Positions 700-36,693 of a stretch of 46,101 nucleotides of DNA are shown here, piece by piece. The position numbers were made by a program, and so were the translations under genes. This DNA comes from Planctomycetota bacterium. Its GTDB lineage: Bacteria > Planctomycetota > PUPC01 > DSUN01. Every line of letters starts with the position of its first letter. The first letter of the stretch is position 1. Location: NCBI GenBank assembly GCA_016872855.1, contig VGYV01000001.1, positions 1 through 46,101 on the forward strand, written 5' to 3'. Under the pieces are notes generated by a model. It ran no database searches and was not told the DNA's origin. It saw only the letters and a program-made list of their open reading frames with translations.

Positions 700-1039
700 A
701 ACCTTCTCCTCGTTCTGCGCCTGAGCCACCATGCGGAAGATGAGTTCAGAGTCGACCTCGGCGGCCCGGGGCATGGTGAGAGGGTCTCCCGCGACCTGGG
801 GTAAGGCCAGGATGGTGCCTTGTGCCAGAACTTGCCAACTTCGAGCATCAAGTGATGGGTTCTCGTGTCCCGCGGGGTCCCTCTGTGTCCCGATTTCCTG
901 TGCCGCTAAGCCGATCTCGGCCGGAATCATAACCGTGGAAACACCAAGACCCTACGGTCATAAGTGGCTGTAGGGTCTTGGGTTGCTTGTATGGCGCGCC
1001 CGGAGGGACTCGAACCCCCAACCGTAGGCTTCGAAGGCC
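700..1039. repeat. R1, ~340-bp direct repeat; partner R2 at 36362..36693
   Basis: Aligns by eye with 36362-36693, roughly 85% identical in the right 240 bp and weaker with indels to the left. It contains a tRNA 3' fragment and a conserved 10-bp hairpin. On the minus strand it carries a 25-codon stub (774..697, MPRAAEVDSELIFRMVAQAQNEEKV) that resembles the N-terminus of an ECF sigma factor. Confidence 0.8.
946..979 (-). terminator. hairpin immediately 3' of the tRNA fragment
   Basis: AAGACCCTAC / GTAGGGTCTT form a 10-bp stem with a 14-nt loop. The R2 copy (36600..36633) has the same stem but a different loop. There is no U-tract. Confidence 0.4.
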
Positions 1040-1042
1040 TAC
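992..1042 (-). pseudogene. 3' fragment of a tRNA-Arg(UCG)-like gene (anticodon arm to CCA)
   Basis: The minus strand reads GTAGGC-CTTCGAA-GCCTAC-GGTT-GGGGG-TTCGAGT-CCCTC-CGGGCGC-G-CCA. The required 5' acceptor strand GCGCCCG and a D-arm are absent from the adjacent sequence. Confidence 0.7.
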
Positions 1043-1144
1043 GATCTGTCCCGCTGCCGTGGTTCCCACCCTATTGTGCTGCCTGCTCTTCGGTGCTAAA
1101 ATGCAACGCTAGCGGGAGCCGTCTCGGCCGAGAGGAGGCGGGCT

Positions 1145-4100
1145 ATGCGATGCCTTTGGCTGGTGGGGGCGCTCGGGGCCGCGCTGGCTGCTCAGGCGGC
1201 CTCGCTTGAGCGCGACGCGCACAGGTGGGTCATAGAGGCCGAGCACTTCGTAGGGCTGGTGCTCTACCCCTTCGATAACCCCGGCCTCGGGAGATGGTAC
1301 GCTCGGGAGGCGAACTGCCGGGCTTACGGAGCGCCTGGACGAGGGGCCATCGCGGCGGTCCACGACACGGCCCCTCCCGCGGCCAGAACCATCTCGAAGT
1401 CCCTCGCACCGCCCATCCCGCCGGGGAAGTACAAGGTCAGCCTCCGCGTCGCGGGAACCCAGTGGCACGACAGGGAGAACATCGTGCGGCTGGGCATCGG
1501 GGAAGCGCCGCCCGTTGACTTCAAGTGGACCTGGCAGGGGAGGTTCGCATGGCTGCCGCTCCAGGAGGTCGAGCTGAAGCAGCCAGCCGCGAGTCTCTCC
1601 CTGACGGCGGCGCAGTTCGGCGGGAAAGGCCTCCGCATCCTGTACGAATGCCAGGCACGCTCCCTGTGGGTCGACTCGATCTACCTCACGTCGGACCTCT
1701 CCGAGACGCAGGGGCCGTCGCTGGCCCTGGAGCGATGCATCGTTCAGGGCCGCCCGCTTGCCAACGAGGTGCTGAGCGGCCGGACGCCGCTCCTCGACGT
1801 CCGGCCCATCGAGCAGTACGAGACACCCGCGCCAAAAGCCATGCCCGTTGCCGCCCTCATTGAGCTGCGCTCGTTCGATGGGCGGAAGAACCTCCTGCCG
1901 AACTCCAGCTTCGAGCTTGGCCTCCCCGACGGCTGGGCCGCCTGCAACCTGTCCTACACTTACTGTCATATCTTCTCGAAGCGCGACGAGGAGGCGAAGC
2001 AGCCGTTCCACGGCCGCTACTGCCTCCACGTGCCGGCAGGCTCCAACGCGTTCTCGCGAGTCTACGAGCTGAAGCAGGGGGGCGAGATGACCCTCTCGGC
2101 CTACGTCCGCGGCGAGGCCGGCGGGAAGGTCAGCCTCGACCTCATCCCCATTGACGCGCAGAAGAACCGCGGCCCGAAGCCGCTGCTCAGCGTCCCATGC
2201 ACCCTCTCCCCGGATTGGCAACGGTTCAGCGCTCGCGGCAACGTGCCGGCGGGCCTGGTCGCGCTCCAGGTGCGCAACGGCCCCGAGCTTTGGCTCGACG
2301 GGGTGCAACTGGAGCCTGGCGAGCTGAGCGCCTATGCCCCCCGCGCGGAGATCGAGGGCGCGCTCTCGACCGACGGCGCCCTTGGGAACATCCTCTACGA
2401 TGAGGGCAACCCCCAGCTCCATGCCCGCTTCCACAACAGCGGGGGAGCGCCCCAGAGAGCCTCGCTCCGCTTTCGCGTCGTGGACGTGGCCGAGCGGGTG
2501 GTCGGCGAGGCGGCCACCGAGCCTGTGACCGTCCCCGGCGGCCAGACGGTCGCCGCCCCGCTCCCTCTCGGCCCGGCGCGAAGGGGGCTGTTCAGCGCGA
2601 CCTATTGGCTGGACGGCCGCGACCGGCCAGATGGGGAGCTGGTCTACGCCATCCTGCCGACTCCGCCGCGCGGCGAGACCCGCCACCAATTGGGCGCAAA
2701 CATGGACACCCTCCCCGCGGCCTACGAGCTGATGAGCCGCTTCGGCTTCCGATGGCAGCTCTACTGCAAAATCCCGGCCACCGCCGCCGCGACCGTCCGC
2801 AAGGCCCCTGCGGAGTGGAACTTCCCGGACGCCCAGCTCGGGCTCGGCCAACGCTTCGGGCTGAAGACCCTCCCGTGCCTCTGGCCCACCCGCGTGCCAG
2901 ACCACATGGCCGACCCAACCCGCAAGGAGGGCTCGACCAAGGAGGTGACACGCAAGCTCAATGTCCCGTATCCCAGGCTCGACCTCTGGGAGGAGTTTGC
3001 CGAGAAGATGGCTGCGCGATACCGGGGCGTAATCGGCGCCTGGACGGTCGAGGATGAGACCGAGATGTATTACACGGCCGGCGATTTCGCCCCGATCCTG
3101 GAGGCCACAGTGCGGGGAGTCCGCCGGGCCGACCCAAAGCTCCGCGTGACTCTCAGCGGCGTGCCCGACTACACCGAAGAGCTCCTGACCCACATCGCTC
3201 CGGGGCAGGTCAACGGCTTCGGGGCCTCCAGCTACGGGCTGGAGCACTGGGAGAGCCGCAAGATTCGCCACCTTAAGAAGCGCTTCGGCGCCTCCTGGTA
3301 CTGCATCGGCGTCGGTGCCGACCGCCAGCCGACCCTCTACCACACCCTCCCCGGCTATCGCCCGGCCTACTGGAGCGCCGCGAAGACCGCACGCGAGCTG
3401 GTCTATCTCTCGGTAGTCCAGGATGCCGACGCCATCGGCCACTACACCGGGCGCCTCTGGAACCGCACCGGCCACTACAACACCGACTTCCCGCTGATGG
3501 ACTACGACGGCACTCCGCTCCCCCACGGCTTCTCATACGCGTGTGTCGGCCTTCTCCTGGCGAACGCCGAGCCCCTCGGCGACGTGCCTGTGGGTGACCT
3601 TGGCATAGTTGCCTATCTCTTCCGCGTTGGCGGGCGGCTCGGGGCGGCCACGTGGGCCACAGCGGTGCCCAAGTACGACCAGCACTGGAAGCCCGCAAGG
3701 CGCCGGTTCGCCAACCTTATCGTCCCCTCGGCCCAGCGCGGCGACCTCGAGGTCCTCGACATGCACTGGAATCCCCGTGAGGACGTCCGCTGGACGACGG
3801 GCGGCGCCAGCTTTCACCTTGACGAAGCGCCCACCTTCCTCCTCAACGCCAGGCTCCCTGAGGAGAAGTTTCTCGCCACATTGCGGGCCGCGACGGCCGA
3901 CCCCGAGCCCTTGCGCGTCCGCCTCGCCTTCGTTCCCGATGGCAGGGGGAGCGCCGACCTTGGTGTCTTCGCAAGGAACCAGACCAAGGGGCCGCTGGGC
4001 AACCTCAAGCTCGACGCAAGAGTCCCCTACGACAAGCTCCTCTCGAAGACCGAGTGGATGCTGAAGTCGGCCCAAGGGGAGCTGGGGACGCTTCAGCCCG

Positions 4101-4849
4101 GCCGCCAGGCCATCGGCCGCCTGCCACTCCTTGCCGACCCGGGGATGCCCATCGAGAACGCCACTTTCCAGGTCTCCGTGGTGGAGGAGAATGGCACCGA
4201 GCACGCGGTTGACGATGTCCTATGGCTCGCCTGGGCGCCCCGCAGCCCCAAAGGTCTGAAGATTGACGGGGACCTGCGGGAGTGGGCGGCGCGCTCGGCG
4301 GCGTGGATTCACATCACCTGGGCGTGGGGACGATTCGGGCGCGACTACTGCCAGATCCACGACGGCGGCGAGCACTTCTCATACTGCACGAAGACCGACA
4401 TCCGGGCGGCGGCCTGGGCCGCATACGACGACGAGCGCCTCATCCTGGCCTTCCGCGTGGACGACGACCAGGTGCTCCTCCCCGACGAAAAGATCGTCGT
4501 GAAGCTCGACACGGACCTCCTCGGCGACTTCAACACGCCGCCGAACGCTGACGACTATGTCGTCACCCTCATCCCGCGTCGGGACGGCAAGGTGGAGGCC
4601 AAGCTCGCCCGGGCCGGCAACGAGAAGTCCATCACGGACGCCGCGGCAAGGGTGGACGAGGGGGGCTACTCCATCGAGGTGGCTATTCCGCTCAACGAGT
4701 TGGGCAGTGTGAAGCCGAAGCCAGGCGAGGCGATTGGCTTCGACTTCTTCGTCCACGATGCCGACATGGAGGAGAGCGCGAAGGCGCTGGGCGCCGTCCG
4801 CTGGGCTGGACAGTGCAAGACGACGGGCCAGCTCTTCTTCACCCGGTAA
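1145..4849 (+). CDS. large secreted protein with CBM4/9-type and C-terminal CBM9-like carbohydrate-binding regions (glycoside-hydrolase-like)
   Basis: 1234-aa ORF with GAGGAGG 6 nt before the ATG. The N-terminus MRCLWLVGALGAALAAQAAS looks like a signal peptide. An NLLPNSSFELG...W motif is typical of CBM4_9, and the C-terminal 200 aa resemble CBM9/DOMON-like sugar-binding modules. Confidence 0.8.
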   Translation: MRCLWLVGALGAALAAQAASLERDAHRWVIEAEHFVGLVLYPFDNPGLGRWYAREANCRAYGAPGRGAIAAVHDTAPPAARTISKSLAPPIPPGKYKVSLRVAGTQWHDRENIVRLGIGEAPPVDFKWTWQGRFAWLPLQEVELKQPAASLSLTAAQFGGKGLRILYECQARSLWVDSIYLTSDLSETQGPSLALERCIVQGRPLANEVLSGRTPLLDVRPIEQYETPAPKAMPVAALIELRSFDGRKNLLPNSSFELGLPDGWAACNLSYTYCHIFSKRDEEAKQPFHGRYCLHVPAGSNAFSRVYELKQGGEMTLSAYVRGEAGGKVSLDLIPIDAQKNRGPKPLLSVPCTLSPDWQRFSARGNVPAGLVALQVRNGPELWLDGVQLEPGELSAYAPRAEIEGALSTDGALGNILYDEGNPQLHARFHNSGGAPQRASLRFRVVDVAERVVGEAATEPVTVPGGQTVAAPLPLGPARRGLFSATYWLDGRDRPDGELVYAILPTPPRGETRHQLGANMDTLPAAYELMSRFGFRWQLYCKIPATAAATVRKAPAEWNFPDAQLGLGQRFGLKTLPCLWPTRVPDHMADPTRKEGSTKEVTRKLNVPYPRLDLWEEFAEKMAARYRGVIGAWTVEDETEMYYTAGDFAPILEATVRGVRRADPKLRVTLSGVPDYTEELLTHIAPGQVNGFGASSYGLEHWESRKIRHLKKRFGASWYCIGVGADRQPTLYHTLPGYRPAYWSAAKTARELVYLSVVQDADAIGHYTGRLWNRTGHYNTDFPLMDYDGTPLPHGFSYACVGLLLANAEPLGDVPVGDLGIVAYLFRVGGRLGAATWATAVPKYDQHWKPARRRFANLIVPSAQRGDLEVLDMHWNPREDVRWTTGGASFHLDEAPTFLLNARLPEEKFLATLRAATADPEPLRVRLAFVPDGRGSADLGVFARNQTKGPLGNLKLDARVPYDKLLSKTEWMLKSAQGELGTLQPGRQAIGRLPLLADPGMPIENATFQVSVVEENGTEHAVDDVLWLAWAPRSPKGLKIDGDLREWAARSAAWIHITWAWGRFGRDYCQIHDGGEHFSYCTKTDIRAAAWAAYDDERLILAFRVDDDQVLLPDEKIVVKLDTDLLGDFNTPPNADDYVVTLIPRRDGKVEAKLARAGNEKSITDAAARVDEGGYSIEVAIPLNELGSVKPKPGEAIGFDFFVHDADMEESAKALGAVRWAGQCKTTGQLFFTR

Positions 4850-4902
4850 CGACACAGCAGCCACTCGGGCGGCCGAATCTGCGCGCGCCCTACGCGCGCT
4901 AC

Positions 4903-5235
4903 TCATGTCGCTTGCGGGCGATGCGAGGCGATGCCTGGCGGTCCCTGGCGATTGCGCGTCAGGACGACAGGCCTTTGGCCGATGGGGACGGTGCGGAACT
5001 GCCGCTCCCCCTGGCCGCGGCGGATCACATGGCGGGAGCAGCACTGGGGGCAGCGCAGTGTCTGAGGGTCCTGCTCAATCCGGGAGATTGTTCGACCCCT
5101 TCGTACCTTGTCCCGACATGGCGGTAGCCCCGGGACCCAAAGCTCTGGCACAATAGGCTCGTGGACATGCTGCTGTCTCCTTCTCGACCTCTGCCTAAGT
5201 TCAGAGGAGACCAGCATGTCCACATTCCCCGTCAT
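4903..5235 (-). pseudogene. decayed ISL3-family transposase N-terminal fragment (zinc-ribbon region)
   Basis: The minus-strand peptide ...LRCPQCCSRHVIRRGQGERQFRTVPIGQRPVVLTRNRQ... fits the ISL3 zf pattern CPxC...R..R.lP..G.pv.L...RR. The preceding LG.PGY-like segment is in another frame (ORF 5025..5225), so the gene is frameshifted. It is also truncated, because no catalytic domain follows. Confidence 0.4.
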
Positions 5236-5295
5236 TGCAGGTACGCTTCAGTCGGATGAGCCCCCTTGGCTCGTGGGGACGCGCGCGAGCACCTC

Positions 5296-5324
5296 TTGCA
5301 GCCTGAGTTGCTGTGGTGTATAAT
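5296..5324 (+). promoter_or_regulatory. sigma70-type promoter with extended -10
   Basis: TTGCAG (5296-5301), 17-bp spacer ending in TG, then TATAAT (5319-5324). It lies 80 nt upstream of the receiver gene, which has a GGAAGGAGGAAGG SD. Confidence 0.55.
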
Positions 5325-5404
5325 GCAGCGGCAGAGGGGGGAGACGGCGGCGCGAGTCCCGTTCAGCTCCATGTGCGCATCGAGAGTGGAAGGAGGAAGG
5401 CGAG

Positions 5405-5794
5405 ATGGCGAACGAGCAGATCCTGATTGTGGACGACGACAAGGACTTGGTAACCACGCTAGCCACGGTGTTGGAGTCTGCGGGCTACCGTGTCAGCTCA
5501 GCAGCTAATGGGACGGAGGGGTGGAAGAAGGCACAGGAAAGCCGCCCCGATCTGGCCATCATTGACGTGATCATGGACACGGTTGGCGAAGGCGTCCGCC
5601 TCACCCACCGGTTTCGTTCAGACGACAAGCTGAGAAGCGTGCCGATCATCATGCTCACCGGGGTGAAGAAGAAGATGCGGATGGACCTTCGACCGCTCGA
5701 CGAGGAGGGGTACCTGTATCTGCCCGTTGACAAGTACATGGACAAGCCGGTGGACCCTCAGGCGCTATTGAGAGAGGTGGCGGGTCTGCTCTAG
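5405..5794 (+). CDS. stand-alone response-regulator receiver (CheY-like)
   Basis: ILIVDDDKD..., a phospho-acceptor context DLAIIDVIMD, and ...YMDKP. 129 aa with a strong SD. Confidence 0.85.
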   Translation: MANEQILIVDDDKDLVTTLATVLESAGYRVSSAANGTEGWKKAQESRPDLAIIDVIMDTVGEGVRLTHRFRSDDKLRSVPIIMLTGVKKKMRMDLRPLDEEGYLYLPVDKYMDKPVDPQALLREVAGLL

Positions 5795-5858
5795 CGTGCT
5801 GCCAACGGCCCGTCGTCCGCTGGCCGCATTGCCCCCAGAGGTTCTTGGCTCGTTGGGT

Positions 5859-5887
5859 TTGACAAGGGGTGGCAGACTGGGTATATG
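5859..5887 (+). promoter_or_regulatory. sigma70-type promoter in front of the sensor hydrogenase genes
   Basis: TTGACA (5859-5864), 17-bp spacer, TATATG (5882-5887). It lies about 45 nt upstream of the GTG at 5934. Confidence 0.5.
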
Positions 5888-5933
5888 TAGCGGTGTGCTT
5901 GGGGAACAATGCCCCGGCCGGGAAGGAGGGCCT

Positions 5934-6899
5934 GTGGCGAATCTCCTCTGGATTCAGGCCGTTTGCTGTGGCGGTGAGACAGTTTCGCTGCTGAACTCCG
6001 ACCACCCGAATCTCCAGGCGGCGATGCGTACTCTTGACGTGACAGTGCTATGGCACAGGTACCTCTACGACCACGGCAGGGGGAAGATGGAGCAGGTGCT
6101 GGATGAATGCGCCGCTGGTAAGCTGCACGTGGACCTGCTTGTGGTGGAGGGCGCAATGTATTCGAGGGCGCCACAGGCCGCAACCTGGGCGTCCGGCGGG
6201 CCATACACCGATTGGGTGCGCGCGATCTGTTCCATGGCGGACTATGCGGTTGCGGTTGGCACCTGCGCGTCTTTCGGCGGCATCATGGCCACCGGACGCA
6301 ACCCGATGGGAGCAACGGGGCTCCAGTACTGCCGAAGCGAGCCGGGGGGCCTGCTCGGTGCTGACTACCGCTCCCGCGCGGGGCTGCCCGTGGTGAACGT
6401 TCCTGGCTGCCCGGCCCACCCGGACTGGATAATAGGGACACTCTGGGCGCTGCGGAGCGGTCGGCTCAGGGAGGCAGATCTCGACCGTTTCAATCGGCCG
6501 CGGGTCTACTATGGCAAGCTGGCGCACCATGCCTGTCCTCGCAACGAGTACTACGAGTTCAAGGCCTCCGCCACCGCCTACTCTCAGCAAGGGTGCCTGT
6601 TCGAGAACTTGGGGTGCAAGGGAACGCTTTGCGAGTCGGACTGCAACGAGCGGCTGTGGCTGACGCGGACCGGGAGCTGCACGCGCGGAGGGTTCCCGTG
6701 TCTGTCATGCACATCGCCGGAGTTTCCCGACGGGTTTGCTCCGTTCTTCGAGACGGCGAAGCTGGGGGACATCCCGACGAGCCTTCCGCTCGATGTGCCC
6801 AAGGCGTGGTACGTGGGGATCAGCGGGCTGTCGAAGCTCGCGTGCCCTGAGCGGCTGCGACGGAACGCGGTGTCGTTCAAGCCCGTCCTGATTGAGTAG
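5934..6899 (+). CDS. hupU: [NiFe]-hydrogenase small subunit, cytoplasmic sensor type (HupU/HoxB-like)
   Basis: The GTG at 5934 is preceded by GGAAGGAGGG. The N-terminus is ANLLWIQAVCCGGE, and GTCASFGG and GCPAHPDW motifs are present. There is no twin-arginine signal peptide. Start chosen inside track ORF 5796..6899. Confidence 0.75.
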   Translation: MANLLWIQAVCCGGETVSLLNSDHPNLQAAMRTLDVTVLWHRYLYDHGRGKMEQVLDECAAGKLHVDLLVVEGAMYSRAPQAATWASGGPYTDWVRAICSMADYAVAVGTCASFGGIMATGRNPMGATGLQYCRSEPGGLLGADYRSRAGLPVVNVPGCPAHPDWIIGTLWALRSGRLREADLDRFNRPRVYYGKLAHHACPRNEYYEFKASATAYSQQGCLFENLGCKGTLCESDCNERLWLTRTGSCTRGGFPCLSCTSPEFPDGFAPFFETAKLGDIPTSLPLDVPKAWYVGISGLSKLACPERLRRNAVSFKPVLIE

Positions 6900-6912
6900 C
6901 CCGCCCCTCCGG

Positions 6913-6983
6913 GGCGGGAAGAATCCGCCTCGGAGAGGCGGGCTACTTGGCGGGAAGAATCCGCCTCGGAGAGGCGGGCTACT
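6913..6983. repeat. tandem duplication of a 35-bp unit (36-bp period) between the small and large subunit genes
   Basis: GGCGGGAAGAATCCGCCTCGGAGAGGCGGGCTACT occurs at 6913-6947 and 6949-6983, followed by a partial third CGGAGAGGC. Each unit holds the hairpin CCGCCTC-GGA-GAGGCGG and an SD-like GGAGAGG. Confidence 0.9.
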
Positions 6984-6998
6984 CGGAGAGGCCGGGGC

Positions 6999-8444
6999 AT
7001 GGCCACAAAGACGATCGTGTTTAGCCCCTTCGCGCGGCTGGAGGGGGACCTCCAGGTCAAGGTGGACGTGGAGGAGGGCCGGGTGGTGCGCGCGTACGCT
7101 TCGGGGACGCTCTACAGGGGTTTCGAGGCGCTGCTGCGGGGCCGCGACCCCCTGGATGCGATCGTCATCACCCCGCGCGTTTGCGGCCAGTGCGGGCTTG
7201 CCCACTCGGCCGCCTCCGCTGGCGCGATTCGCTCTCTCCTCGGAACCCAGATGCCGCCGAACGCCTACGTTGCGACAAACGTGATGCTGGCGATTGAGCT
7301 GGTGCTGAGCCACCTGGCCCACTTCTACCTCTCGTTCGCCCCGGACCTTGCAGAGCCTCCGTACGACGACGAGGCGACGCGGCGCTTCCTGCCCCTCAGA
7401 GGCAGTTCGTTCCTGGGCGCGCTTCGCGCCCGCGAGGAGATCCTCGGCGTCCTGGGGCTGTTTGCCGGCAAGTGGCCCAACACCCTCGCCATTCAGCCCG
7501 GCGGCACGACGAGACCGCTGGACGCGAGCGAGATCCGCAGGGCGCGGGGCCTCCTGGGCGAGTTCACGGAGTTCGTCAGGCAGCAGGTCATCGGCTGCGA
7601 GCCGGATGAGTGGCTGGCCCTGCGGAGCGCCTCGGACCTCGACGCCTGGCTCGGGGAAGGCGCGCACGCCGCGAGCGATGTGGGCGCCTTCGCCACCTTC
7701 TCTCTCAAGCAGGGGCTGGACAGGCTCGGGAAGTGGCCTGCCCGGTTCATGTCCAGCGGCGGCTGGCCTCGCGCGACAGGCGAAACCCTGATGAAGCCGG
7801 GCGCCTGCGAAGCGGACGGCGATGCCGCGGAGTTCTGCCCGGGCAAGATGCTCGAACACGTCAAGCACTCGTGGTACGACCCCTCCGAGGGCGGCGTTCA
7901 TCCATTCGATGGCGAGGGCGAGCCTGCCCCGGACCGCGCCGATGCCTATAGTTGGGCGAAGGCGCCGCGCTACGCGGGAGCGCCCGCGGAAGCCGGGCCG
8001 CTCGCACGGATGGTCAATGACGGCGACCCGCTGGTCGTGGGCCTGCTGAGGCGCCACGGTCCTTCGGCCTTCGTGCGCGAGATGGCCCGGCTGCACGAGA
8101 CCCTCCGCTTGCTGCGCCAGATCGGCATATGGCTGAACGAGGTGGCGCCCGAAGAACCGTTCTATCGAGAGACCCCACGGGTGGAGTCCGGCTCCGGGGT
8201 TGCGGTGGTGGAGGCCCCGCGTGGGACCCTCGGGCATTGGCTGCGGGCGGAGGGGGGCAAGATCCGCAACTACCAGATCATCACCCCCACCGGCTGGAAC
8301 CTCTCGCCCAGGGACTCTGAGGATCGCCCCGGGCCTCTGGAGATGGCCCTTGTGGGCACCCCGGTGCCGGACCTTGCGCGGCCGGTGGCGATTTCGCACG
8401 TCGTCAAGTCGTTCGACCCGTGCCTGTTCTGCACAGTGCACTGA
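6999..8444 (+). CDS. hupV: [NiFe]-hydrogenase large subunit, sensor type (HupV/HoxC-like), no C-terminal extension
   Basis: N-terminal RVCGQCGLAH (RxCGxCxxxH). The protein ends exactly at ...DPCLFCTVH-stop, so there is no cleavable tail, as in regulatory hydrogenases. Confidence 0.8.
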   Translation: MATKTIVFSPFARLEGDLQVKVDVEEGRVVRAYASGTLYRGFEALLRGRDPLDAIVITPRVCGQCGLAHSAASAGAIRSLLGTQMPPNAYVATNVMLAIELVLSHLAHFYLSFAPDLAEPPYDDEATRRFLPLRGSSFLGALRAREEILGVLGLFAGKWPNTLAIQPGGTTRPLDASEIRRARGLLGEFTEFVRQQVIGCEPDEWLALRSASDLDAWLGEGAHAASDVGAFATFSLKQGLDRLGKWPARFMSSGGWPRATGETLMKPGACEADGDAAEFCPGKMLEHVKHSWYDPSEGGVHPFDGEGEPAPDRADAYSWAKAPRYAGAPAEAGPLARMVNDGDPLVVGLLRRHGPSAFVREMARLHETLRLLRQIGIWLNEVAPEEPFYRETPRVESGSGVAVVEAPRGTLGHWLRAEGGKIRNYQIITPTGWNLSPRDSEDRPGPLEMALVGTPVPDLARPVAISHVVKSFDPCLFCTVH

Positions 8445-8446
8445 AC

Positions 8447-8490
8447 TAGCCCGCATTTCTCACCGCCCCGTCGGTGAGAAATGCGGGCTA
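8447..8490 (+). terminator. perfect 19-bp hairpin directly after the large subunit stop
   Basis: TAGCCCGCATTTCTCACCG - CCCCGT - CGGTGAGAAATGCGGGCTA. There is no T-tract. It shares the TAGCCCGC/GCGGGCTA ends with the 6897-6983 repeats. Confidence 0.45.
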
Positions 8491-8497
8491 GGAGCCT

Positions 8498-8546
8498 CGA
8501 GCGGCGAGCTTCGAGCCGCGAGCCAGGCCAGAAAGCTCGCCGCTCG
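8498..8546 (+). other. second intergenic hairpin (14-bp stem, 21-nt loop)
   Basis: CGAGCGGCGAGCTT ... AAGCTCGCCGCTCG. Confidence 0.4.
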
Positions 8547-8575
8547 TGGCTCGTGGCTGCGCATAGGAGTGTGGC

Positions 8576-9897
<1,322 letters not shown>

Positions 9898-9901
<4 letters not shown>

Positions 9902-14579: not shown

Positions 14580-14635
14580 CCGCAAGCGTCCCGCTTGCCG
14601 GCTTTCTCGACAACCGAGACGGTTGTCGCTACATC
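14576..14635. repeat. 60-bp double-hairpin REP-like element, copy 1 (intergenic)
   Basis: GTAGCCGCAAGCGTCCCGCTTGCCGGCTTTCTCGACAACCGAGACGGTTGTCGCTACATC. The reverse complement of 18999-19056 is nearly identical. It has two internal hairpins (GCAAGCG-TCC-CGCTTGC and CGACAACCG-AGA-CGGTTGTCG). Confidence 0.85.
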
Positions 14636-14651
14636 GGAGGAAGGCACAGCG

Positions 14652-18456: not shown

Positions 18457-19205
18457 AGGAAGTGCGTGCCGACCTGCACATACACACCTGCCTTTCGCCC
18501 TGCGCGGAGCGCGACATGTCGCCTCCGGCCGTGGTGAGGACGGCTCGTGAGAGGGGGCTGGACCTGATCGCGGTGTGCGACCACAACTCGGCTGAGAACG
18601 TCGGGGCGGCCACCCGCGCCGCACGCGACACCGGCCTGGCCGTCATCGGCGGCATGGAGATATGCACGCGCGAGGAGGTCCACGTGCTGGGCATCTTCGA
18701 CGACGGCCTCGCCCTCAGCTCGGCGCAGCAGGCCGTTTACCAGAACCTCAGCGGCGAGAACAACCCCGAGGTCTTCGGCGAGCAACTCGTGATGAACGAG
18801 CGGGGGGAGGTCGTCGGTCACAACAGCCGACTTCTCATCGGGGCAACCGGCCTGTCCTTGAAGGAGGTGGTCGGAACCATCCACAGCCTTGGGGGCCTCG
18901 CCATCGCCGCCCACGTGGACCGGCCCAGATTCAGCGTCATCAGCCAACTCGGCTTCGTCCCGCCGGGGCTCGAGCTCGACGGGGCGGAGGTGTGCTCTGA
19001 TGTAGCGACAACCGTCTCGGTTGTCGATACCGCGCAAGCGGGACGCTTGCGGCTACCAGAGGGCCTCGCCGTCGTCAGGTCGTCCGACGCCCACCGCCCC
19101 GAGGAGATCGGCTCCAGATGCACCCGTCTCCTCGTGGAGGAGCCGACAGCCTGCGAGGTCGGGAAGGCCCTGCGAAGGATTGAGGGCCGGAGGATTCTTG
19201 TGTAA
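18453..19205 (+). CDS. PHP-domain (polymerase/histidinol-phosphatase family) protein
   Basis: ADLHIHTCLSPCA...IAVCDHNS...AHVDRP...SSDAH metal-ligand pattern. The reading frame runs through REP copy 2. Confidence 0.75.
   Translation: MKEVRADLHIHTCLSPCAERDMSPPAVVRTARERGLDLIAVCDHNSAENVGAATRAARDTGLAVIGGMEICTREEVHVLGIFDDGLALSSAQQAVYQNLSGENNPEVFGEQLVMNERGEVVGHNSRLLIGATGLSLKEVVGTIHSLGGLAIAAHVDRPRFSVISQLGFVPPGLELDGAEVCSDVATTVSVVDTAQAGRLRLPEGLAVVRSSDAHRPEEIGSRCTRLLVEEPTACEVGKALRRIEGRRILV
18999..19056. repeat. REP-like element, copy 2 (inverted, inside the PHP gene)
   Basis: Reverse complement of copy 1 with a few changes. It encodes ...DVATTVSVVDTAQAGRLRLP... of the PHP protein. Confidence 0.85.
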
Positions 19206-26747: not shown

Positions 26748-27233
26748 ATGCCCGAGGAGGAGCCCGTGGTGCAGGTGGGCGACCTTGACCTTCGGTTTGC
26801 CGACGAGGTGGCCTCGCAGCCTGGCGGCGAGCACATCCGGCGCTGCTTCGCCTGCGGCACGTGTGCCGCCGGTTGTCCCATCACCGAGGTGGACCCCGAT
26901 TACAACCCCAGGAAGATCGTCCGCCAGATCCTGTTCGGCATGCGCGACGAGGTGCTCTCCTCGCCCCGCATCTGGTACTGCCTTGTCTGCTACCGGTGCT
27001 ATGCGCGATGCCCACAGAAGGTGAACTTCACCGACGTGATGCGCGCGCTCCGCTATCTCGCCATCAAGGGCCGTCATGCGCCCAGCGACGTCCTGAAGCG
27101 CATCGAGGAGCTCGACCGCCTGGCGCAGAGCCTCCGCCACAACCTCGTCCAGTACAGCTTCGAGAAGCGTTCGGAGCTCCTGGACGCCTTTCGGAACAAG
27201 GTCGAGGAGCAACTGAAGGGGATGAGCACGTGA
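26748..27233 (+). CDS. HdrC-like 2x[4Fe-4S] protein
   Basis: CFACGTCAAGCP and CLVCYRCYARCP motifs, 161 aa, with GAGAGGAG SD. Confidence 0.8.
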   Translation: MPEEEPVVQVGDLDLRFADEVASQPGGEHIRRCFACGTCAAGCPITEVDPDYNPRKIVRQILFGMRDEVLSSPRIWYCLVCYRCYARCPQKVNFTDVMRALRYLAIKGRHAPSDVLKRIEELDRLAQSLRHNLVQYSFEKRSELLDAFRNKVEEQLKGMST

Positions 27234-31300: not shown

Positions 31301-31344
31301 GCTTCCGCAACACCCAAATCCTCGAGGCCGTTGACGCGATTTGA
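28339..31344 (+). CDS. hdrA: double HdrA-like flavoprotein (two tandem modules, 1001 aa)
   Basis: ALVIGGGIAGIQASLDLAEAG...DKTFPTNDCAMC, the inserted ferredoxin KCTGCGICTTKCP, CVGSRD, and GPKDIPES. Then IGVFVCRCGINI, THEPLF, a second VIGGGVAGL module and C-terminal CSGCGDCTNVC / CKGCGACTATC. Confidence 0.9.
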   Translation: MSVRKRALVIGGGIAGIQASLDLAEAGTEVFLVERGPSIGGRMAQLDKTFPTNDCAMCILSPKLVEVSKHPNIRLLTNAELLALEGEAPSFKARVRKHPRYVDEAKCTGCGICTTKCPVRLPDPHNKGLSKTRCIRIPFPQAVPAVPIMDPTQCLYHTRGKCGVCKRLCQADAIDYEQKAQDLELEVGAAILALGSEEFDATLKDEYGYHTFPNVVTSIELERLLSASGPTQGHVQRPSDGKEPERVAFLQCVGSRDMQVGNDYCSAVCCMQAAKDSIILTEHMRGVESTVFYMDVRAYGKGFDRFVERAKREHDVRFVRARVASVEVDPNTENLLVRYNADDGSIREEAFDLLVLSVGLCATARVREVVRRLGLRTDEYGFVTTSTFSPLETSRRGVFVCGTASGPKDIPESVIQASGASSAALAMMSGLEASEPKAELPEPRDLRGEPTRIGVFVCRCGINIASTVDVPRVVEYASALPKVAHAQEFLFACSKDSQKTIAEAIREKKLTRVSVAACTPRTHEPLFQATLEASGLNPYLFEFANIREHCSWVHQGAPDKATQKAKELIRMAVAKAARLEPLDKTKLGVKHSALVIGGGVAGLTAALDLAAQGYPVHLVERASELGGHLLKIRRTLAGEGVAAFLGDLVEKVKSDPRITVHLSTSVRELSGYVGNFKTRLAGEDGEIEHGVVVVATGAREHVPREYLYGNDARVMTQTEFERLLTGPDSARLKGLRSVVMIQCVGSREAGRPYCSRICCGTAIKNALWLKEQNRKARVYVLCRDVRVYGLNERWYREARRQGVVFLRYDEETKPSVSNGNGRLVVRADDSILGCTLSLDADLLVLSAGIEPNEDNRALSQLLKVPLDADGFFLEAHVKLRPVDFATEGVFVCGLAHYPKDISESIAQARAAASRAATVLSKSELQAEGKVAAVDASRCSGCGDCTNVCAYKAIELDPVFRVAVVNEATCKGCGACTATCRAAAIDLKGFRNTQILEAVDAI

Positions 31345-31351
31345 GGAAGTC

Positions 31352-31810
31352 ATGATCCAGACTCAGAGCGGACAGGAAACCGGGCCAGCCAAGAGGGATT
31401 GGGAGCCCAAGATCGTGGCGTTCCTGTGCAATTGGTGTTCTTATGCCGGGGCGGACCTGGCTGGGGTGAGCCGCATCCAATACCCCCACAACATCCGCGT
31501 CATCCGCGTGCCCTGCTCGGGGAGGGTCAACCCCGTCTTCCTGTTGCGCGCACTCCAGAACGGGGCCGACGGCGTGCTCGTCTCCGGGTGCCACCCTGGC
31601 GATTGCCACTACATCAGCGGCAATCTGGTGGCCCGGCGGAAGTTCGCGCTTCTCAAGGAGCTCCTCCAATATGCGGGGATCGAGCCCGAGCGGGTGCAGT
31701 TCACCTGGGTGTCCGCCTCGGAAGGCGGCCGCTTCGCCGCCATCGTGGAGAAGGTCGTGGAGGAGGTCCGAAGGCTCGGCCCGAACGACAAACTGGTGAA
31801 GAAGCTATGA
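31352..31810 (+). CDS. mvhD: MvhD/FlxD-type protein (second copy)
   Basis: IVAFLCNWCSYAGADLAG...RVPCSGRV...GCHPGDCHY. GAGGAAG SD. Confidence 0.85.
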   Translation: MIQTQSGQETGPAKRDWEPKIVAFLCNWCSYAGADLAGVSRIQYPHNIRVIRVPCSGRVNPVFLLRALQNGADGVLVSGCHPGDCHYISGNLVARRKFALLKELLQYAGIEPERVQFTWVSASEGGRFAAIVEKVVEEVRRLGPNDKLVKKL

Positions 31811-32826
31811 GCGCCAGCCACGAGATCGAGACCCGCCTGCGCGAGACCGCGGAGAAACTCCTCCGCGAGAAGAGGGTGGACCTCTTCCTGGGGTATGAGA
31901 AGGCGAGCCTTCCCTTTCGGACGACCCCGCTCTTCCTCACCTCGCCCGAGGAGGTCAAGCGCCTGGCGTGGAACCCATTCTGCACCACCAACCTCGCCGT
32001 GTACCTGCCGCGGCTATTCAAGCCCCCCGCTGATGCCAGGGAGGCTAAGACGGCTCCCCCGCCGCCGACCGTTGGGCTGGTGCTGAAGGGATGCGACACT
32101 CGCTCCGTGGTCGCGCTCATCCAGGAGCGCCGGGTGCCCCGTGAGAAGCTGATGCTCGTGGGCGTCGCCTGCCCGGGCATGGTGGATTGGCGAAAGGCGG
32201 AGAGAGCGCTACGCGAGCACGAGCCGCTGGGGGCCGGAGAGGATGCCCAGGGCAACATCCACGTTGTGGTCGAGGATGGAACGGAGCTCACCCTGCGGCG
32301 CGAGGAGATCGTCGCGGACGCTTGCCTTGAGTGCCGCTCCCCCACCCCCTCGATACACGACGCGCTGCTAGGCACACCCGTCGAGGGGAAGGACCCGGAG
32401 GCGGCCCGACAGCAGACGGCGGCCTTCGAGGCCAAGCCTCTCAGTGCCAGATGGGCGCACCTCCAGGAGACGTTCTCCCGGTGCATCAGATGCAATGCGT
32501 GCCGGCAGGCCTGTCCCGTCTGCTCCTGCTGCAAGGAGTGCCTGCTGGACCAGACCCGGCCGAGGTGGGTGGGGGCCGGCACCGACATCTCCGACGTCAC
32601 GATCTACCACCTCGTAAGGGCATTCCACATGGCCGGCCGCTGCACGGACTGCGGGGCGTGCGCCAGGGCATGCCCGATGGGGATTGACACACGCCTCCTG
32701 GCGCGCAAGGTGAACCAGGAGGTCGAGGACCTCTACGGCTACCGACCCGGCGAGGCGCTCGACGCGAAGCCGCCGCTGGCCGACTTCGCCGCGGACGACT
32801 CGCAGGACTTCCTCACAGAGCCTTAG
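31807..32826 (+). CDS. iron-sulfur protein (4Fe-4S dicluster; FlxC-like position)
   Basis: ATGA overlap start. CIRCNACRQACPVCSC and CTDCGACARACP. Confidence 0.7.
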   Translation: MSASHEIETRLRETAEKLLREKRVDLFLGYEKASLPFRTTPLFLTSPEEVKRLAWNPFCTTNLAVYLPRLFKPPADAREAKTAPPPPTVGLVLKGCDTRSVVALIQERRVPREKLMLVGVACPGMVDWRKAERALREHEPLGAGEDAQGNIHVVVEDGTELTLRREEIVADACLECRSPTPSIHDALLGTPVEGKDPEAARQQTAAFEAKPLSARWAHLQETFSRCIRCNACRQACPVCSCCKECLLDQTRPRWVGAGTDISDVTIYHLVRAFHMAGRCTDCGACARACPMGIDTRLLARKVNQEVEDLYGYRPGEALDAKPPLADFAADDSQDFLTEP

Positions 32827-32863
32827 CTCACCCTCGATGGGTCAAGGCCGGCCGGAGGGCGCG

Positions 32864-33916
32864 ATGACAGAAAAGCGGATTCCTCACACTGACCTGGACA
32901 GGCTTCTTGACCGTCTGCGGGGACTCGGCGCGGTCCACGCGCCGACGAGAGACGAGTCGGGCGACGTGATCCTCGCCGAGGTCTCGCCCGGCAAGCCCGT
33001 GGTGCTGGACTACAAGAACTTCCCCCTCTCGCCCAAGGTCTTCCTGCTGCCCCAGACTCAGACCCTCCTTCGCTTCACGAATGGGAAACCTCACGAGCCT
33101 GCTCCCGTTGCCGGCAACGGGGGCCCATCGCAAGGCGATGGGCGCCCGCCCAACCGACAGGCGTTTCTCTTCGGAGTCCGGCCCTGCGATGCCAGAGCGC
33201 TCCTTGCGCTCGACGAGGTCTTCCTCGGCGGCGACCAGCGCGATCCATATTATGAGCGGCTTCGCGCGAAGACGGTGGTGATCGTGCTCGCGTGCACGCG
33301 CCCCATGTCGAGCTGCTTCTGCACCTCCGTTGGCGGCGGCCCGAGCGACGAGGCCGGAGCGGATGTGCTTGCCATTGGGCTCGAGGCAGACCTCCTCTTG
33401 AGGGCGATCACGCCCAAGGGTGAGGACCTCTTGTCATCCGCGGCTGACCTGCTCGGCGATGCCACACCCCCCGCCATCGAGGAAGCACAGGAACGGGCCC
33501 GTAAAGCGGCGGACCAGATTGCGCCGGTGGAGCTCGACCGCAGCGCTGAGCGGCTGCGCAATGCCTACGATTCTCCGCTCTGGGGAATCCTCAGCCAGAA
33601 ATGTCTCGGCTGCGGCACGTGCAGCTTCCTTTGCCCGACCTGTCACTGCTTCGACATCACGGATGAGGTTCGAGGCGACGTGGTCCGGCGGGTCAGGACC
33701 TGGGATTGCTGTGCCTATCCGCTTTTCACCCTACACGCCTCCGGCCACAACCCCCGGCCCACGCCCAAGGAAAGGTGGCGCCAGCGCCTCATGCACAAGT
33801 TCCGCTACGCAGTCGAGAACCTCGGCCGGCTCTTCTGCGTCGGCTGCGGACGCTGCATCCGCAACTGCCCGGTGAGCCTTGACCTTCGGGCCGTGTTCAG
33901 GGAACTCGGAGCCTAA
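32864..33916 (+). CDS. AsrA / sulfhydrogenase-beta-like iron-sulfur protein (FlxB-like position)
   Basis: The ATG follows GGAGGG. CLGCGTCSFLCPTCHCFD and CVGCGRCIRNCP. Confidence 0.7.
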   Translation: MTEKRIPHTDLDRLLDRLRGLGAVHAPTRDESGDVILAEVSPGKPVVLDYKNFPLSPKVFLLPQTQTLLRFTNGKPHEPAPVAGNGGPSQGDGRPPNRQAFLFGVRPCDARALLALDEVFLGGDQRDPYYERLRAKTVVIVLACTRPMSSCFCTSVGGGPSDEAGADVLAIGLEADLLLRAITPKGEDLLSSAADLLGDATPPAIEEAQERARKAADQIAPVELDRSAERLRNAYDSPLWGILSQKCLGCGTCSFLCPTCHCFDITDEVRGDVVRRVRTWDCCAYPLFTLHASGHNPRPTPKERWRQRLMHKFRYAVENLGRLFCVGCGRCIRNCPVSLDLRAVFRELGA

Positions 33917-33919
33917 GCA

Positions 33920-34762
33920 ATGGCAAGGAACCCATACCTCCCCTATCCGGCGCGGATCGAGGAGGTCGTGATCGAGAACGAGGCAAGGGACATCAAGAGC
34001 TTCCGGCTCGTGCTCGACAACGCTCAAGACGCCGCGGAGTTCAGGCACTTGCCCGGCCAGTTCGCCGAGCTCTCTCTGCCGGGATTCGGCGAAGCCCCTT
34101 TCGGCATCGCCTCCTCGCCGACGGAGACTGGCTACCTCCTCTTCACGGTCAAGCGGATGGGACTCTTCACCACGGAGCTACACAGCCTCGAGGCCGGTGC
34201 CGGGCTCGGCGTCAGGGGGCCGATGGGCAAGCCGTTCCCCTGGGACCGAATGGTGGGCAAGAATCTCCTCATCATCGGCGGGGGGTTCGCCTTCACCACT
34301 CTCCGCGCCGCCATCAACTACACCCTCGAACCGCAGAACCGAACCCGCTTCGGCTCGGTGTTCGTCGTCTACGGCGCGCGAACGCCCGGCGAGCTTATGT
34401 ATAGGGACGAGCTCGCCAAGTGGCAGACGCGGGATGACATTGACGTTCACCTGACGGTGGACAAGGCCGACGCGACCTGGACCCAGCACGAGGGCGTCGT
34501 AACATCCGTGCTTGACAGCCTGAAGCCCAGCTCGGAGAATGCCCTTGCCGTCGTCTGCGGCCCGCCCATCATGATCAAGTTCACCCTCTTCTCCCTCGCC
34601 AAGCTCGGCTTTCCCGACGATGCCATCATCCTCTCCCTCGAGATGCGCATGAAATGCGGCATCGGCAAGTGCGGCCGGTGCAACATCGGCAGCAAGTTCG
34701 TCTGTAAGGATGGCCCCGTCTTCACCCGCGAAGAACTGCGGTCCCTTCCAGCGGAGTATTAG
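33920..34762 (+). CDS. FAD/NAD(P)-binding oxidoreductase with C-terminal [2Fe-2S] (AsrB / sulfhydrogenase-gamma / FlxA-like)
   Basis: FNR-like fold motifs (PGQFAEL, GIASSP, LLIIGGGFAFTTL, VCGPPIM) and CGIGKCGRCN. Confidence 0.8.
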   Translation: MARNPYLPYPARIEEVVIENEARDIKSFRLVLDNAQDAAEFRHLPGQFAELSLPGFGEAPFGIASSPTETGYLLFTVKRMGLFTTELHSLEAGAGLGVRGPMGKPFPWDRMVGKNLLIIGGGFAFTTLRAAINYTLEPQNRTRFGSVFVVYGARTPGELMYRDELAKWQTRDDIDVHLTVDKADATWTQHEGVVTSVLDSLKPSSENALAVVCGPPIMIKFTLFSLAKLGFPDDAIILSLEMRMKCGIGKCGRCNIGSKFVCKDGPVFTREELRSLPAEY

Positions 34763-34775
34763 CGGCACCTCGCCG

Positions 34776-35426
34776 CTATCGTCTGGCGGCCACTTCCTCG
34801 AGCCAATCGAGCAAGGCATCCACCCCCTCGCCAGTCCTGGCCGAACATCTGAACACCCTCAGCTCGGGATTCGCAACAACTGCGTCCCTCTCCATCCTCT
34901 CGATATCGCACCGCAGGTGGGGCAAGAGGTCGGTCTTTGTCAGCACCATCGCCGCCGCCACACGAAGCGCCACAGGGTACTTTGCCGGCTTATCGTCGCC
35001 CTCCGTCACCGAAACCACAGCCACCTTGATGTCCTCCCCTATCTCGAAGCTCGCCGGGCACACCAGATTCCCCACGTTCTCGATGAAGAGAAACCGGGCG
35101 TTGTCGAGCGGGAGCTGCCCCACCGCGCGGCGTATCTGCCCGACATCCAGATGGCACCCTGAGATCGTGTTTATCTGGTAGGCGGGGAGGCCGACACGTT
35201 CGATTCGCCTCTTGTCCTCGTCAGTCTCCAGGTCTCCCTGAATGACGGCCGCCTTGCCCCTCAGCCGAGGAGCTGCGGCCTCCAGGAGGCTTGTCTTGCC
35301 GGAGCCCGGCGACCCGATCAGGTTCACAACAAACACGCCTCTCCGCCTGAAGAACCTCCGCAGAGCCTCCGCTGTCCGTCGGCCCGCGGCCTCAACTCTT
35401 CGCCTCAGCGTGATCGTCTTCGACAT
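34776..35426 (-). CDS. hypB: hydrogenase nickel-incorporation GTPase HypB
   Basis: GSPGSGKTSLL P-loop, ENVGNLVCPA and LTKTDL. The start is taken at the internal ATG (MSKTITL...) of track ORF 34776..35459. Confidence 0.85.
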   Translation of the reverse strand: MSKTITLRRRVEAAGRRTAEALRRFFRRRGVFVVNLIGSPGSGKTSLLEAAAPRLRGKAAVIQGDLETDEDKRRIERVGLPAYQINTISGCHLDVGQIRRAVGQLPLDNARFLFIENVGNLVCPASFEIGEDIKVAVVSVTEGDDKPAKYPVALRVAAAMVLTKTDLLPHLRCDIERMERDAVVANPELRVFRCSARTGEGVDALLDWLEEVAARR

Positions 35427-35772
35427 CCAATTCCACCTCTTCAATGTAGACCTCGGCATTCAGAAGCAGCTCTGCCTCCTTGCCGCACGTCGGACAGACC
35501 GGCTCCACCACGCCACCCACGGGCTGCCGCCCGCAATCAGAGCAGACAAGCTCGGGGGCAACCTCGTCCACCTCCACCTCGGCGCCCTCCATCGCCGACC
35601 CCTCAGCGACCGCTTTCAGGCAGAAAGCCAGGTTGGCGCCGTTGACCCCGGACAACCGCCCTACTCTCAGCCTCACGCGGCTGACCCCCCGCGCACAGTG
35701 CCTGCGCGCCTCCTGGTCAACGCACTTGAGTATCTGCTCTGCGAACGACAGCTCGTGCAATGCCAGCGCCAC
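35392..35772 (-). CDS. hypA: hydrogenase nickel-insertion protein HypA
   Basis: (M)HELSFAEQIL N-terminus and zinc motif CSDCG...CPTCG. The start is GTG 35772 or, more typically for HypA, TTG 35760. Confidence 0.85.
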   Translation of the reverse strand: MALALHELSFAEQILKCVDQEARRHCARGVSRVRLRVGRLSGVNGANLAFCLKAVAEGSAMEGAEVEVDEVAPELVCSDCGRQPVGGVVEPVCPTCGKEAELLLNAEVYIEEVELDVEDDHAEAKS

Positions 35773-35816
35773 CCCCCGTCATCAGAGCACCGGGTCTCCA
35801 CCGCAATCGCTGGATG

Positions 35817-35845
35817 ATTCTACCTCTCCGGCTCGGAAAGTTCAA
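35817..35845 (-). promoter_or_regulatory. sigma70-type promoter for hypAB
   Basis: Minus strand TTGAAC (35845-35840), 17-bp spacer, TAGAAT (35822-35817), about 40 nt upstream of hypA. Confidence 0.5.
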
Positions 35846-35872
35846 GCTTGGCCTCGCTGCTGGGCGCAATAA

Positions 35873-36140
35873 CGGAGGCTCATCCGAATTTCCGTGGGCT
35901 CCGCGGGGCAATGGCACGCCATCCAGATCATCGCCGCGTTGAGAGCCGGCAAGGACGTCTACGGCAAAAAGCCCATGAGCTCGACGATCCGCGAGGCCGC
36001 GGCCATCCGCCATGCGGTCAAACGCCACGGCCGCGTCTACCAGCACGGAACCTAGCGCACCTCGAACAAGCCCGTGCAGTATGCTCGGGAGCCGGCGCGC
36101 CGGGGGGAGATCGGCAGGATTGCTGCCGCCGGCGTGGGCA
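35873..36140 (+). pseudogene. Gfo/Idh/MocA-family oxidoreductase fragment (5'-truncated, in-frame stop)
   Basis: ...WHAIQIIAALRAGKDVYGKKPMSSTIREAAAIRHAVKRHGRVYQHGT-TAG-RTSNKPVQYAREPARRGEIGRI matches the family's ...GKxVYxEKPl...q.G.q.Rs...a.elv..G.iG pattern. It lacks the N-terminal Rossmann GxGxxG part and has a TAG at 36054-36056. Confidence 0.5.
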
Positions 36141-36361
36141 ATCGCGGCCATGATGAGCTGGGCGGCCCCTGCCTGTGGGCCGCCTCTGGCCGCGAAAGGG
36201 GGTGCGCGACTTGCCAGGCCTCGCTGGAGTGGAAGACGGTCCGCAAGCGCCGGGCATAGGCGGCGTCGAGGGGCGTGTCGCCCTTGAGAAGGCGAAGCTT
36301 GCCCGGCTAGCCCCGGCGCACCCACGTTGCGGAGACGCAGCCTTCGCAACGAGCGACGAGC

Positions 36362-36693
36362 GACTTGAACTCCTCGTCGTTCCTGCCCGGTCTACCATGC
36401 GGAAGATCACCTCGCCGGATCGAGGCAGGGTGAGGGGCTGGGGCGCCACCTGAGCTAAGCGCGGGGTGGGGTCTTGTGCCAGAATCTGCCAACTTCGCGC
36501 ATCGGATGATGGGTTTTCGTGTCCCGCGGTGTCCCGCTGTGTCCCGACTCCCTATGCCGTCTGGCCGCCCCCTGCCGGACTCATAACACCAGAAACACCA
36601 AGACCCTACAGTCGCAAGTGGCTGTAGGGTCTTGGGTTGCTCGTATGGCGCGCCCGGAGGGACTCGAACCCCCAACCGTAGGCTTCGAAGGCC
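36362..36693. repeat. R2, direct repeat partner of R1
   Basis: Same order of parts as R1: an ECF-sigma-like stub that is frameshifted (..GEVIFRMVDRAG / NDEEFKSLVARCEG..), a conserved block GGGACACGA(G/A)AACCCATCA..., the 10-bp hairpin at 36600-36633, and the tRNA 3' part. Confidence 0.8.

Follow-up and report, generated by a model that had tools for sequence, protein, structure and literature searches.

A regenerated tRNA gene (tDNA) together with a displaced fragment marks a genomic island, and attachment sites (attP) centred on the anticodon form one of two main classes (PMC4383910). Cis-mobilizable elements (CIMEs) keep their attachment (att) sites and have lost the integration and transfer genes, and accretion has been described for them (PMC5704250). 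Here we analysed a stretch of 46,101 nucleotides from a Planctomycetota bacterium (contig VGYV01000001.1 of assembly GCA_016872855.1, hereafter the window), in which two direct repeats, R1 and R2, both carrying the 3′ part of a tRNA-Arg(UCG), bracket about 35 kb with a supercluster of hydrogenase and heterodisulfide reductase (Hdr) genes. With moderate confidence we read R1 and R2 as fossil units of attachment sites that go back to a single family of integrative elements, the remains of a decayed accretion array at tRNA-Arg. Such a feature is of a known kind, and this case stands out by its cargo, by a long arm joined to a gene relic common to both units, and by a tRNA-like copy without a D-arm.

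The window is the entire longest contig (C1) of a fragmented metagenome-assembled genome (MAG), G000, which comprises 8.88 Mb in 1143 contigs with a completeness of 89.5 % and a contamination of 5.8 %. In what follows, C numbers denote contigs of this MAG unless another genome is named, G001 and G002 are genomes of the same genus, and L033, L034 and L042 are other contigs. Global alignment placed the direct repeat at 700-1046 (R1) and 36362-36700 (R2), both on the minus strand and about 350 bp long, and a repeat search returned 755-1054 against 36409-36708 as a direct repeat with 82 % identity. The direct repeat around a 35-kb region described in an earlier note on this DNA was therefore confirmed, and the tRNA was correctly named there, as the anticodon loop CTTCGAA gives UCG. 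On the strand that both share, R1 sits 35.6 kb further to the 3′ side than R2, and 35.3 kb lie between the two units. The context of R1 is not an assembly artefact, as the independent contig L033 covers C1:1-2967 with 99.8 % identity and continues for another 1.5 kb. The two units consist of the following parts:

992-1046, minus strand: R1 tRNA-Arg(UCG) 3′ part, from the anticodon stem to CCA (92 % identity to positions 29-77 of the C49 tRNA; partial Rfam match)
944-981, minus strand: R1 hairpin with a 17-bp stem and a 4-nt loop, of the tRNA terminator type, found also after the intact C49 tRNA
823-943, minus strand: R1 arm, made of a tail of about 29 nt common with C49 and then the block
700-822, minus strand: R1 GATase_6 relic, residues ~151-190, with a stop after 25 codons (tblastn; blastn to G003)
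36646-36714, minus strand: R2 D-armless tRNA-Arg(UCG)-like pseudogene (Rfam RF00005; negative in ARAGORN)
36598-36635, minus strand: R2 hairpin (inverted-repeat search)
36477-36597, minus strand: R2 arm (alignment and motif positions)
36190-36476, minus strand: R2 GATase_6 relic, residues ~150-249, frameshifted and interrupted by stops (64 % amino-acid identity over residues 186-249)

Read on the minus strand, each unit starts with CCGT(A/T)GGC-CTTCGAA-GCCTACGG, an 8-bp dyad around a 7-nt loop that holds the anticodon UCG; in R1 the dyad arms flanking CTTCGAA are CCGTAGGC and GCCTACGG. The rest of the tRNA-Arg to CCA follows, then the hairpin, whose stem has 17 bp and not 10 as previously given, the tail of about 29 nt, the block and the gene relic. 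The tail is present also behind the intact tRNA-Arg(UCG) on C49. The dyad is missing from the native tRNA, and the block occurs only in R1, R2, C362 and the foreign metagenome contig L034. Identity between R1 and R2 is 96.5 % in the core and tRNA 3′ part (1046-990), 84 % in the spacer, hairpin and tail, 81.5 % in the block and 64 % in the gene relic, and the 29 nt upstream, on the 5′ side, are unrelated (31 %). The longest perfect run measures 51 nt (1039-989 = 36693-36643). As for the extent of R2, the repeat is real from 36362 onward, but the unit itself continues to 36190. The arm of R2 contains GGGACAC three times at an exact spacing of 10 nt (36539, 36529 and 36519), followed by CCCATCA...AAGTTGGCA..TTCTGGCACA; that of R1 has the motif twice, at 885-891 and 865-871, separated by a degenerate copy. 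Together these copies make up five of the 12 occurrences in the window, and by analogy the phased repeats are candidate arm-type binding sites for an integrase. We also considered a sigma-54 promoter in TTGGCA..TTCTGGCAC and rejected it, because the order and spacing, judged by eye, do not fit the -24/-12 consensus.

The layout shares several traits with the Islander-type islands at tRNA and tmRNA genes (PMC4383910). A fragment of the cognate tRNA 3′ part that begins at the anticodon stem (R1) lies in direct orientation on the 3′ side of a tRNA-like copy (R2), the element gives a replacement 3′ half, the arm has phased direct repeats, and integrases adjoin tRNA genes in this genome. The locus differs from these islands in three ways: no tyrosine integrase lies in the interval, a D-armless pseudogene takes the place of the native gene, and similarity runs for about 290 bp past the tRNA into a shared gene relic. 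The last point bears out the earlier note, according to which this was not a simple duplication of att sites.

Neither copy was thought to be a complete canonical tRNA, and indeed ARAGORN found no tRNA anywhere in the window. For R2 this needs an addition. It matches the full Rfam tRNA model with 44 bits (36649-36714; gathering score 29) and keeps the 5′ acceptor strand GCGCCCG, and with it a complete 7-bp acceptor stem, the anticodon arm, the T-arm and CCA. In the Rfam alignment, 7 nt stand in place of the 13 positions of the D-arm, so that R2, which lacks the canonical cloverleaf, closes as a tRNA without D-arm and is best described as a D-armless pseudo-tRNA. R1 has no 5′ acceptor strand and reaches only 24.6 bits in a partial match (1002-1069). 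R2 is comparable to the mis-called tRNA gene fragments treated in PMC9897764 in that it passes the Rfam tRNA threshold and is not canonical; it differs from those described there in retaining both acceptor strands, the D-arm alone being missing. The T-arm is also informative. The native gene has GCAGG/CCTGC, whereas R1, R2 and C369 have GGGGG/CCCTC, which still pairs, and such a paired non-native variant points to another lineage as the origin of the units, which would have come on an element.

The intact tRNA-Arg(UCG) to be expected elsewhere in the genome was found on C49, downstream of a gene for a protein of 1445 amino acids, and its orthologue holds the same place in G001 and G002. Because of this upstream synteny in the same genus, we regard C49 as the native locus, and R2 is not to be taken for the native gene; an intact target tRNA thus stands at neither end of the interval. 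We compared the locus in G002 (C1, ~1734.2 kb), G001 (C209, ~40.3 kb) and G000 (C49, C476 and C62). The 5′ flank of the native gene is conserved and the 3′ flank differs among the three genomes. The 3′ flank in G002 matches C476 of G000, joining exactly at the end of the C49 homology, and that in G001 matches C62. With three different 3′ flanks in three genomes of one genus, the native tRNA-Arg(UCG) is an insertion hot spot. The break in G000 lies directly after the terminator hairpin, and the C476 side of the break is without a tRNA fragment. A G27-A43 mismatch in the C49 tRNA was considered as a sign of a hybrid gene and dropped, as the tRNA of G002 has the identical sequence.

The distal codons of the repeats had been taken for the start of an extracytoplasmic function (ECF) sigma factor. 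This identification has to be abandoned: the open reading frames (ORFs) gave no Pfam match, and the codons correspond to residues ~150-250 of a GATase_6 protein. The relic stretch has 79 % DNA identity to a 291-amino-acid ORF of another relative, G003, and an intact copy on C515 of the MAG is 73 % identical to the G003 protein. Pfam assigns the C515/G003 protein to GATase_6, and its gene stands beside Amidoligase_2, DUF5049 and a small Phage_int_SAM_1 protein, a set that we read as a mobile-element module on the basis of the integrase-type domain and of the usual make-up of such modules. The relic is thus a remnant of mobile-element DNA. R1 and R2 relics join the block at the identical point inside the GATase_6 gene, which implies that the composite unit was formed once and then copied, and the R2 relic reaches beyond the part common to R1.

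At least six fragments of the family occur in this MAG and one more, L034, comes from a different metagenome; the members in the MAG include R1, R2, C362, C369 and C641. All begin abruptly at one and the same place in the anticodon stem, their 3′ extents differ, and their 5′ flanks are mutually unrelated (z ≤ 3.1). On C362 the fragment, hairpin and block are followed by three large serine recombinases, the C369 unit is cut 24 nt past the hairpin by a high-copy repeat, C641 is a short fragment, and L034 has the block without the GATase relic. R2 is nearer to C369 (99 % over 104 nt) than to R1. The block was not found in 40 relatives, where the tRNA part alone matches; two patterns searched in public genome contigs gave no match, viral contigs returned only C362 itself, and metagenome contigs returned the same population plus the one foreign copy, L034. 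A generic dispersed repeat of the REP (repetitive extragenic palindrome) or MITE (miniature inverted-repeat transposable element) type was rejected on account of the copy number, about six, each beginning at the same tRNA position; genuine REP-like families in the MAG run to dozens or hundreds of copies.

Several observations were made on these contigs in passing. The three serine recombinase genes of C362 stand in tandem directly downstream of the R-type unit, at 2923-7744, a stretch that corresponds to UViG_3300020084_002617 in IMG/VR. High-copy sequences of about 127 nt (L033:4383-4510, L035:1-128), one of which truncates the C369 unit, occur at many contig ends of the MAG and probably represent insertion-sequence ends at which the assembly broke off. 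Two ARAGORN predictions, tRNA-Arg(tcg) at C516:1821-1897 and tRNA-Glu(ctc) at C105:7750-7838, are false and belong to REP-like families, which are often in tandem (C108:2418-2868).

Between and next to the two units we identified the following features:

1-582, plus strand: 3′ part of a gene for a secreted protein of 368 amino acids, outside R1 (full length on L033)
1145-4849, plus strand: gene for a secreted CBM9-domain protein of 1234 amino acids (Pfam)
4903-5235, minus strand: possible relic of an ISL3 transposase N-terminus at the left edge of the core (Zn_ribbon_ISL3, sub-threshold)
5389-34763, plus strand: hydrogenase/Hdr supercluster (Pfam; synteny)
34776-35772, minus strand: hypB and hypA, outside the stretch colinear with a relative (Pfam cobW and HypA; synteny ends at 34763)
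35873-36140, plus strand: Gfo/Idh/MocA fragment with an in-frame stop (translation; tblastx to many paralogues)
36827-40312, plus strand: gene for a secreted protein of 1161 amino acids, outside R2 and divergent from the pseudo-tRNA (search and context)

Pfam scans of all long ORFs bore out the hydrogenase/Hdr content of the interval. The supercluster encodes a response regulator, a sensor-type [NiFe] hydrogenase, two-component systems, NuoE/F-like proteins, HdrA fusions, MvhDGA-like proteins, HycI and an FrhB-like protein, among others. A 33-nt inverted repeat (14607-14639 and 18995-19027, 97 % complementary, arms 4.36 kb apart) lies within the hydrogenase operon and surrounds the stretch from the nuoF-like to the PHP gene. 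Of the two relics that had been placed at the inner ends, the Gfo/Idh/MocA pseudogene is real, and the ISL3 relic has a zinc-ribbon match (Zn_ribbon_ISL3, E = 2e-4) that at 22.1 bits stays below the cut-off of 25.5; no further copy of it was found in the genome. The CBM9 protein is rare, with 24 homologues, the best at 67 %, and none in five genomes of the family. Each unit precedes, by about 100 nt, a divergently oriented gene for a large secreted protein. The possibility that the proteins of 1234 and 1161 amino acids are paralogues was discarded, since BLASTP finds no similarity between them. The composition of both genes is typical of the genome.

Contigs of a lineage of the same family, G004 (GCA_016782825.1), run colinear to the window only over 5389-34763 (29.4 kb), with a DNA identity of 77-82 %. 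A lone tRNA-Val 3′ fragment lies 1.1 kb to the left of the cluster in this relative; on the right, at a distance of 1 kb, are genes for tRNA-His and tRNA-Pro. The fragment, at L042:2973-3020 on the minus strand, covers positions 29-76 of tRNA-Val(CAC), and no intact tRNA-Val to pair with it was found within 14 kb on the other side of the cluster. The relative also lacks most of the sensor-type [NiFe] hydrogenase, from the end of the small subunit to the end of the large subunit (window 6088-8254 against L042:4868/4859), and keeps the regulators and the rest. Using GyrB (71 %) and RecA (84 %) as yardsticks of protein divergence (rpoB is not assembled in the MAG), we found similar values for the core proteins (69-88 % identity to the G004 lineage), hence no sign of recent transfer.

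Contigs of the G004 lineage carry the cluster, while a full-length match to the double HdrA was obtained in none of the eight family genomes searched; in the G004 representative the match is limited to an 87 % piece where a contig ends. No orthologue of the double HdrA is present in G001, G002 and G003 (GyrB identity 82-89 %), and for the NuoF-like gene all eight genomes gave matches at the level of paralogues only (53-63 %). Given these missing orthologues in near relatives, the distribution of the cluster is patchy, which fits several losses or an old transfer. No cluster orthologues were found in G001 and G002, and the flanking genes are not conserved there either. The empty site was sought through the nearest homologues of the flank genes, and their contexts turned out not to be conserved.

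According to the reading that we favour, the parent elements would have targeted tRNA-Arg(UCG) with a crossover in the anticodon loop and would probably have been of the tyrosine-integrase type. Each unit may represent the element-borne side of the site, consisting of the dyad core, the replacement tRNA 3′ half, the terminator hairpin, the GGGACAC arm and the start of element DNA, the last surviving only as the GATase_6 relic. Related elements could have inserted successively, by accretion, at a tRNA-Arg-linked hot spot of the flexible genome, and would later have lost their recombinase and transfer genes, leaving 35.3 kb between units of the same orientation in a CIME-like state. The hydrogenase core would then have arrived as cargo or have been placed by later rearrangement. 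Like a CIME, the interval is without integration and transfer genes of its own. From the CIMEs related to ICESt1 and ICESt3 it differs in that no cognate element or integrase was found, in sites that are about 80 % identical and partly decayed, in a 29-kb cargo of hydrogenase/Hdr genes with a native-looking composition, and in the host, which belongs to Planctomycetota and not to Bacillota. The stacked vcr islands of Dehalococcoides at ssrA, with their respiratory genes (PMC3146451), likewise contain energy-metabolism genes marked by copies of the 3′ end of a tRNA-type gene. In that system there is a single native ssrA and comparative data support site-specific mobilization.

A number of results weigh against this reading. 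Pfam scans detected no integrase, excisionase or transfer gene in 1047-36190, and a genome search with PF00589 gave 13 tyrosine-integrase matches, several adjoining tRNA genes elsewhere and none on C1. Although units of the att type stand at either end of the interval, neither a cognate integrase nor an intact parent element with an integrase was found anywhere we searched. The units show no conserved arm on their 5′ side, which elements of one family should have. In the G004 lineage the core has other flanks on both sides and no Arg units. The composition of the core is near-native: its GC content of 66.3-66.6 % against 67.8 % for the genome falls in the 5th to 12th percentile, and by tetranucleotide distance it ranks among the top 5-9 % when compared with size-matched samples. 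The agreement of the core proteins with GyrB and RecA would also fit vertical descent with losses. What the earlier note had called the scar of an acquisition or segmental duplication therefore stands in part. The units are integration scars of mobile elements, the geometry fits, relics lie at the inner ends and the core did not turn up in the same-genus genomes, but the family is dispersed, a recombinase is missing and the composition is near-native. That the hydrogenase genes came, or can leave, as a single island is unproven. The block was also described as poised for deletion; given one perfect run of 51 nt in repeats of about 80 % identity, its deletion by homologous recombination is conceivable and would be inefficient.

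Could the bracket be fortuitous? R1 and R2 might be leftovers of a dispersed family beside ordinary chromosomal hydrogenase DNA, brought into this position by separate insertions or by rearrangement, either through homologous recombination between dispersed units or through an insertion-sequence event at the ISL3 relic. The dispersal of the family with its unrelated 5′ flanks, a core whose divergence resembles vertical descent, the near-native composition and the relic at the core edge all agree with this, and the different contexts of the flank genes between relatives indicate that rearrangement is common. We nevertheless consider it unlikely. Given some five copies spread over 8.9 Mb, finding a same-oriented pair within 36 kb would be a rare coincidence (roughly estimated at 0.04), the four tRNA 3′ fragments (Arg, Arg, Ala and Pro), all on the minus strand of the 46-kb contig C1, speak for a local process, and none of the same-genus genomes that were searched has the cluster. 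Quite unlikely, in our view, is a single island at 1047-36690 that integrated once at tRNA-Arg with the hydrogenase/Hdr genes as cargo, R2 being attL and R1 attR, and lost its integrase later. Its orientation and the sides of the tRNA-like copy and the fragment would be correct, relics line both inner ends, and the cluster was not found in same-genus genomes. R1, however, is trailed by element-type DNA, the arm and the same GATase relic as R2, and thus differs from an ordinary attR, which would border on host DNA. R2 is distinct from the native tRNA gene and nearer to C369 than to R1, and the unit conserved in a relative comprises only 5389-34763; to this are added the missing integrase and the near-native composition. 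Another reading, in which the contig is an array of large recombinase-less segments with tRNA docking units (Arg, Arg, Ala, Pro), shuffled in trans by integrases encoded elsewhere, and the 29-kb hydrogenase/Hdr module is exchangeable among Planctomycetota, is speculative, and we would give it little credence.

Two further explanations do without site-specific recombination or give the units a function. Replication slippage or unequal crossing-over could have duplicated a segment of about 350-500 bp locally, and the similarity does run well past the usual att identity block. Yet copies with the same sharp 5′ edge occur on other contigs and in another metagenome, and R1 and R2 are not most closely related to each other, by which a local duplication is largely refuted and becomes very improbable. 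It is hardly credible that R2 acts as a D-armless tRNA-like RNA, or that the block is a regulatory RNA or promoter for the adjacent secreted-protein genes. R2 forms a closed tRNA-like fold, the folding of the region is good (z = -4.65), and the position of both units upstream of divergent genes would suit such a role, but the two downstream proteins are unrelated, R1 has no acceptor strand, a pseudogene terminates the units, none of the 40 relatives has the block, and no Rfam family besides tRNA matches.

The Ala and Pro fragments of C1 belong to a second repeat pair on the minus strand, at 40599-40935 and 45247-45577, with 87 % identity over about 325 nt and the opposite layout. Here a block with phased repeats (TTCCGNATA three times and ACCACTACAA twice) is placed 5′ of the tRNA fragment, which covers positions 30-76 of tRNA-Ala(CGC) in one copy and positions 31-72 of tRNA-Pro(GGG) in the other. 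The pair encloses two genes (one with DUF7309, DUF6930 and Xre-MbcA-ParS-C, the other with DUF3843) of low GC content (64.0 %). On C430:3714-5284 we found an intact tRNA-Pro(GGG) with a tyrosine integrase gene behind it; a 3′ fragment of tRNA-Ala comes next, together with the hairpin known from the 40.6-kb repeat. This locus may be an integrase-bearing relative of the second repeat family.

Our analysis documents an integration hot spot linked to tRNA-Arg(UCG) and a family of long attachment-site arms, and it corrects two identifications, the gene relic being GATase and the tRNA-like copy a pseudo-tRNA. If the bracketed DNA were a true cis-mobilizable segment, a single event could bring in or remove an entire electron-bifurcating hydrogenase/heterodisulfide-reductase system, sensor and regulators included, and such one-step gain or loss would account for the patchy presence of the cluster in this planctomycete family.

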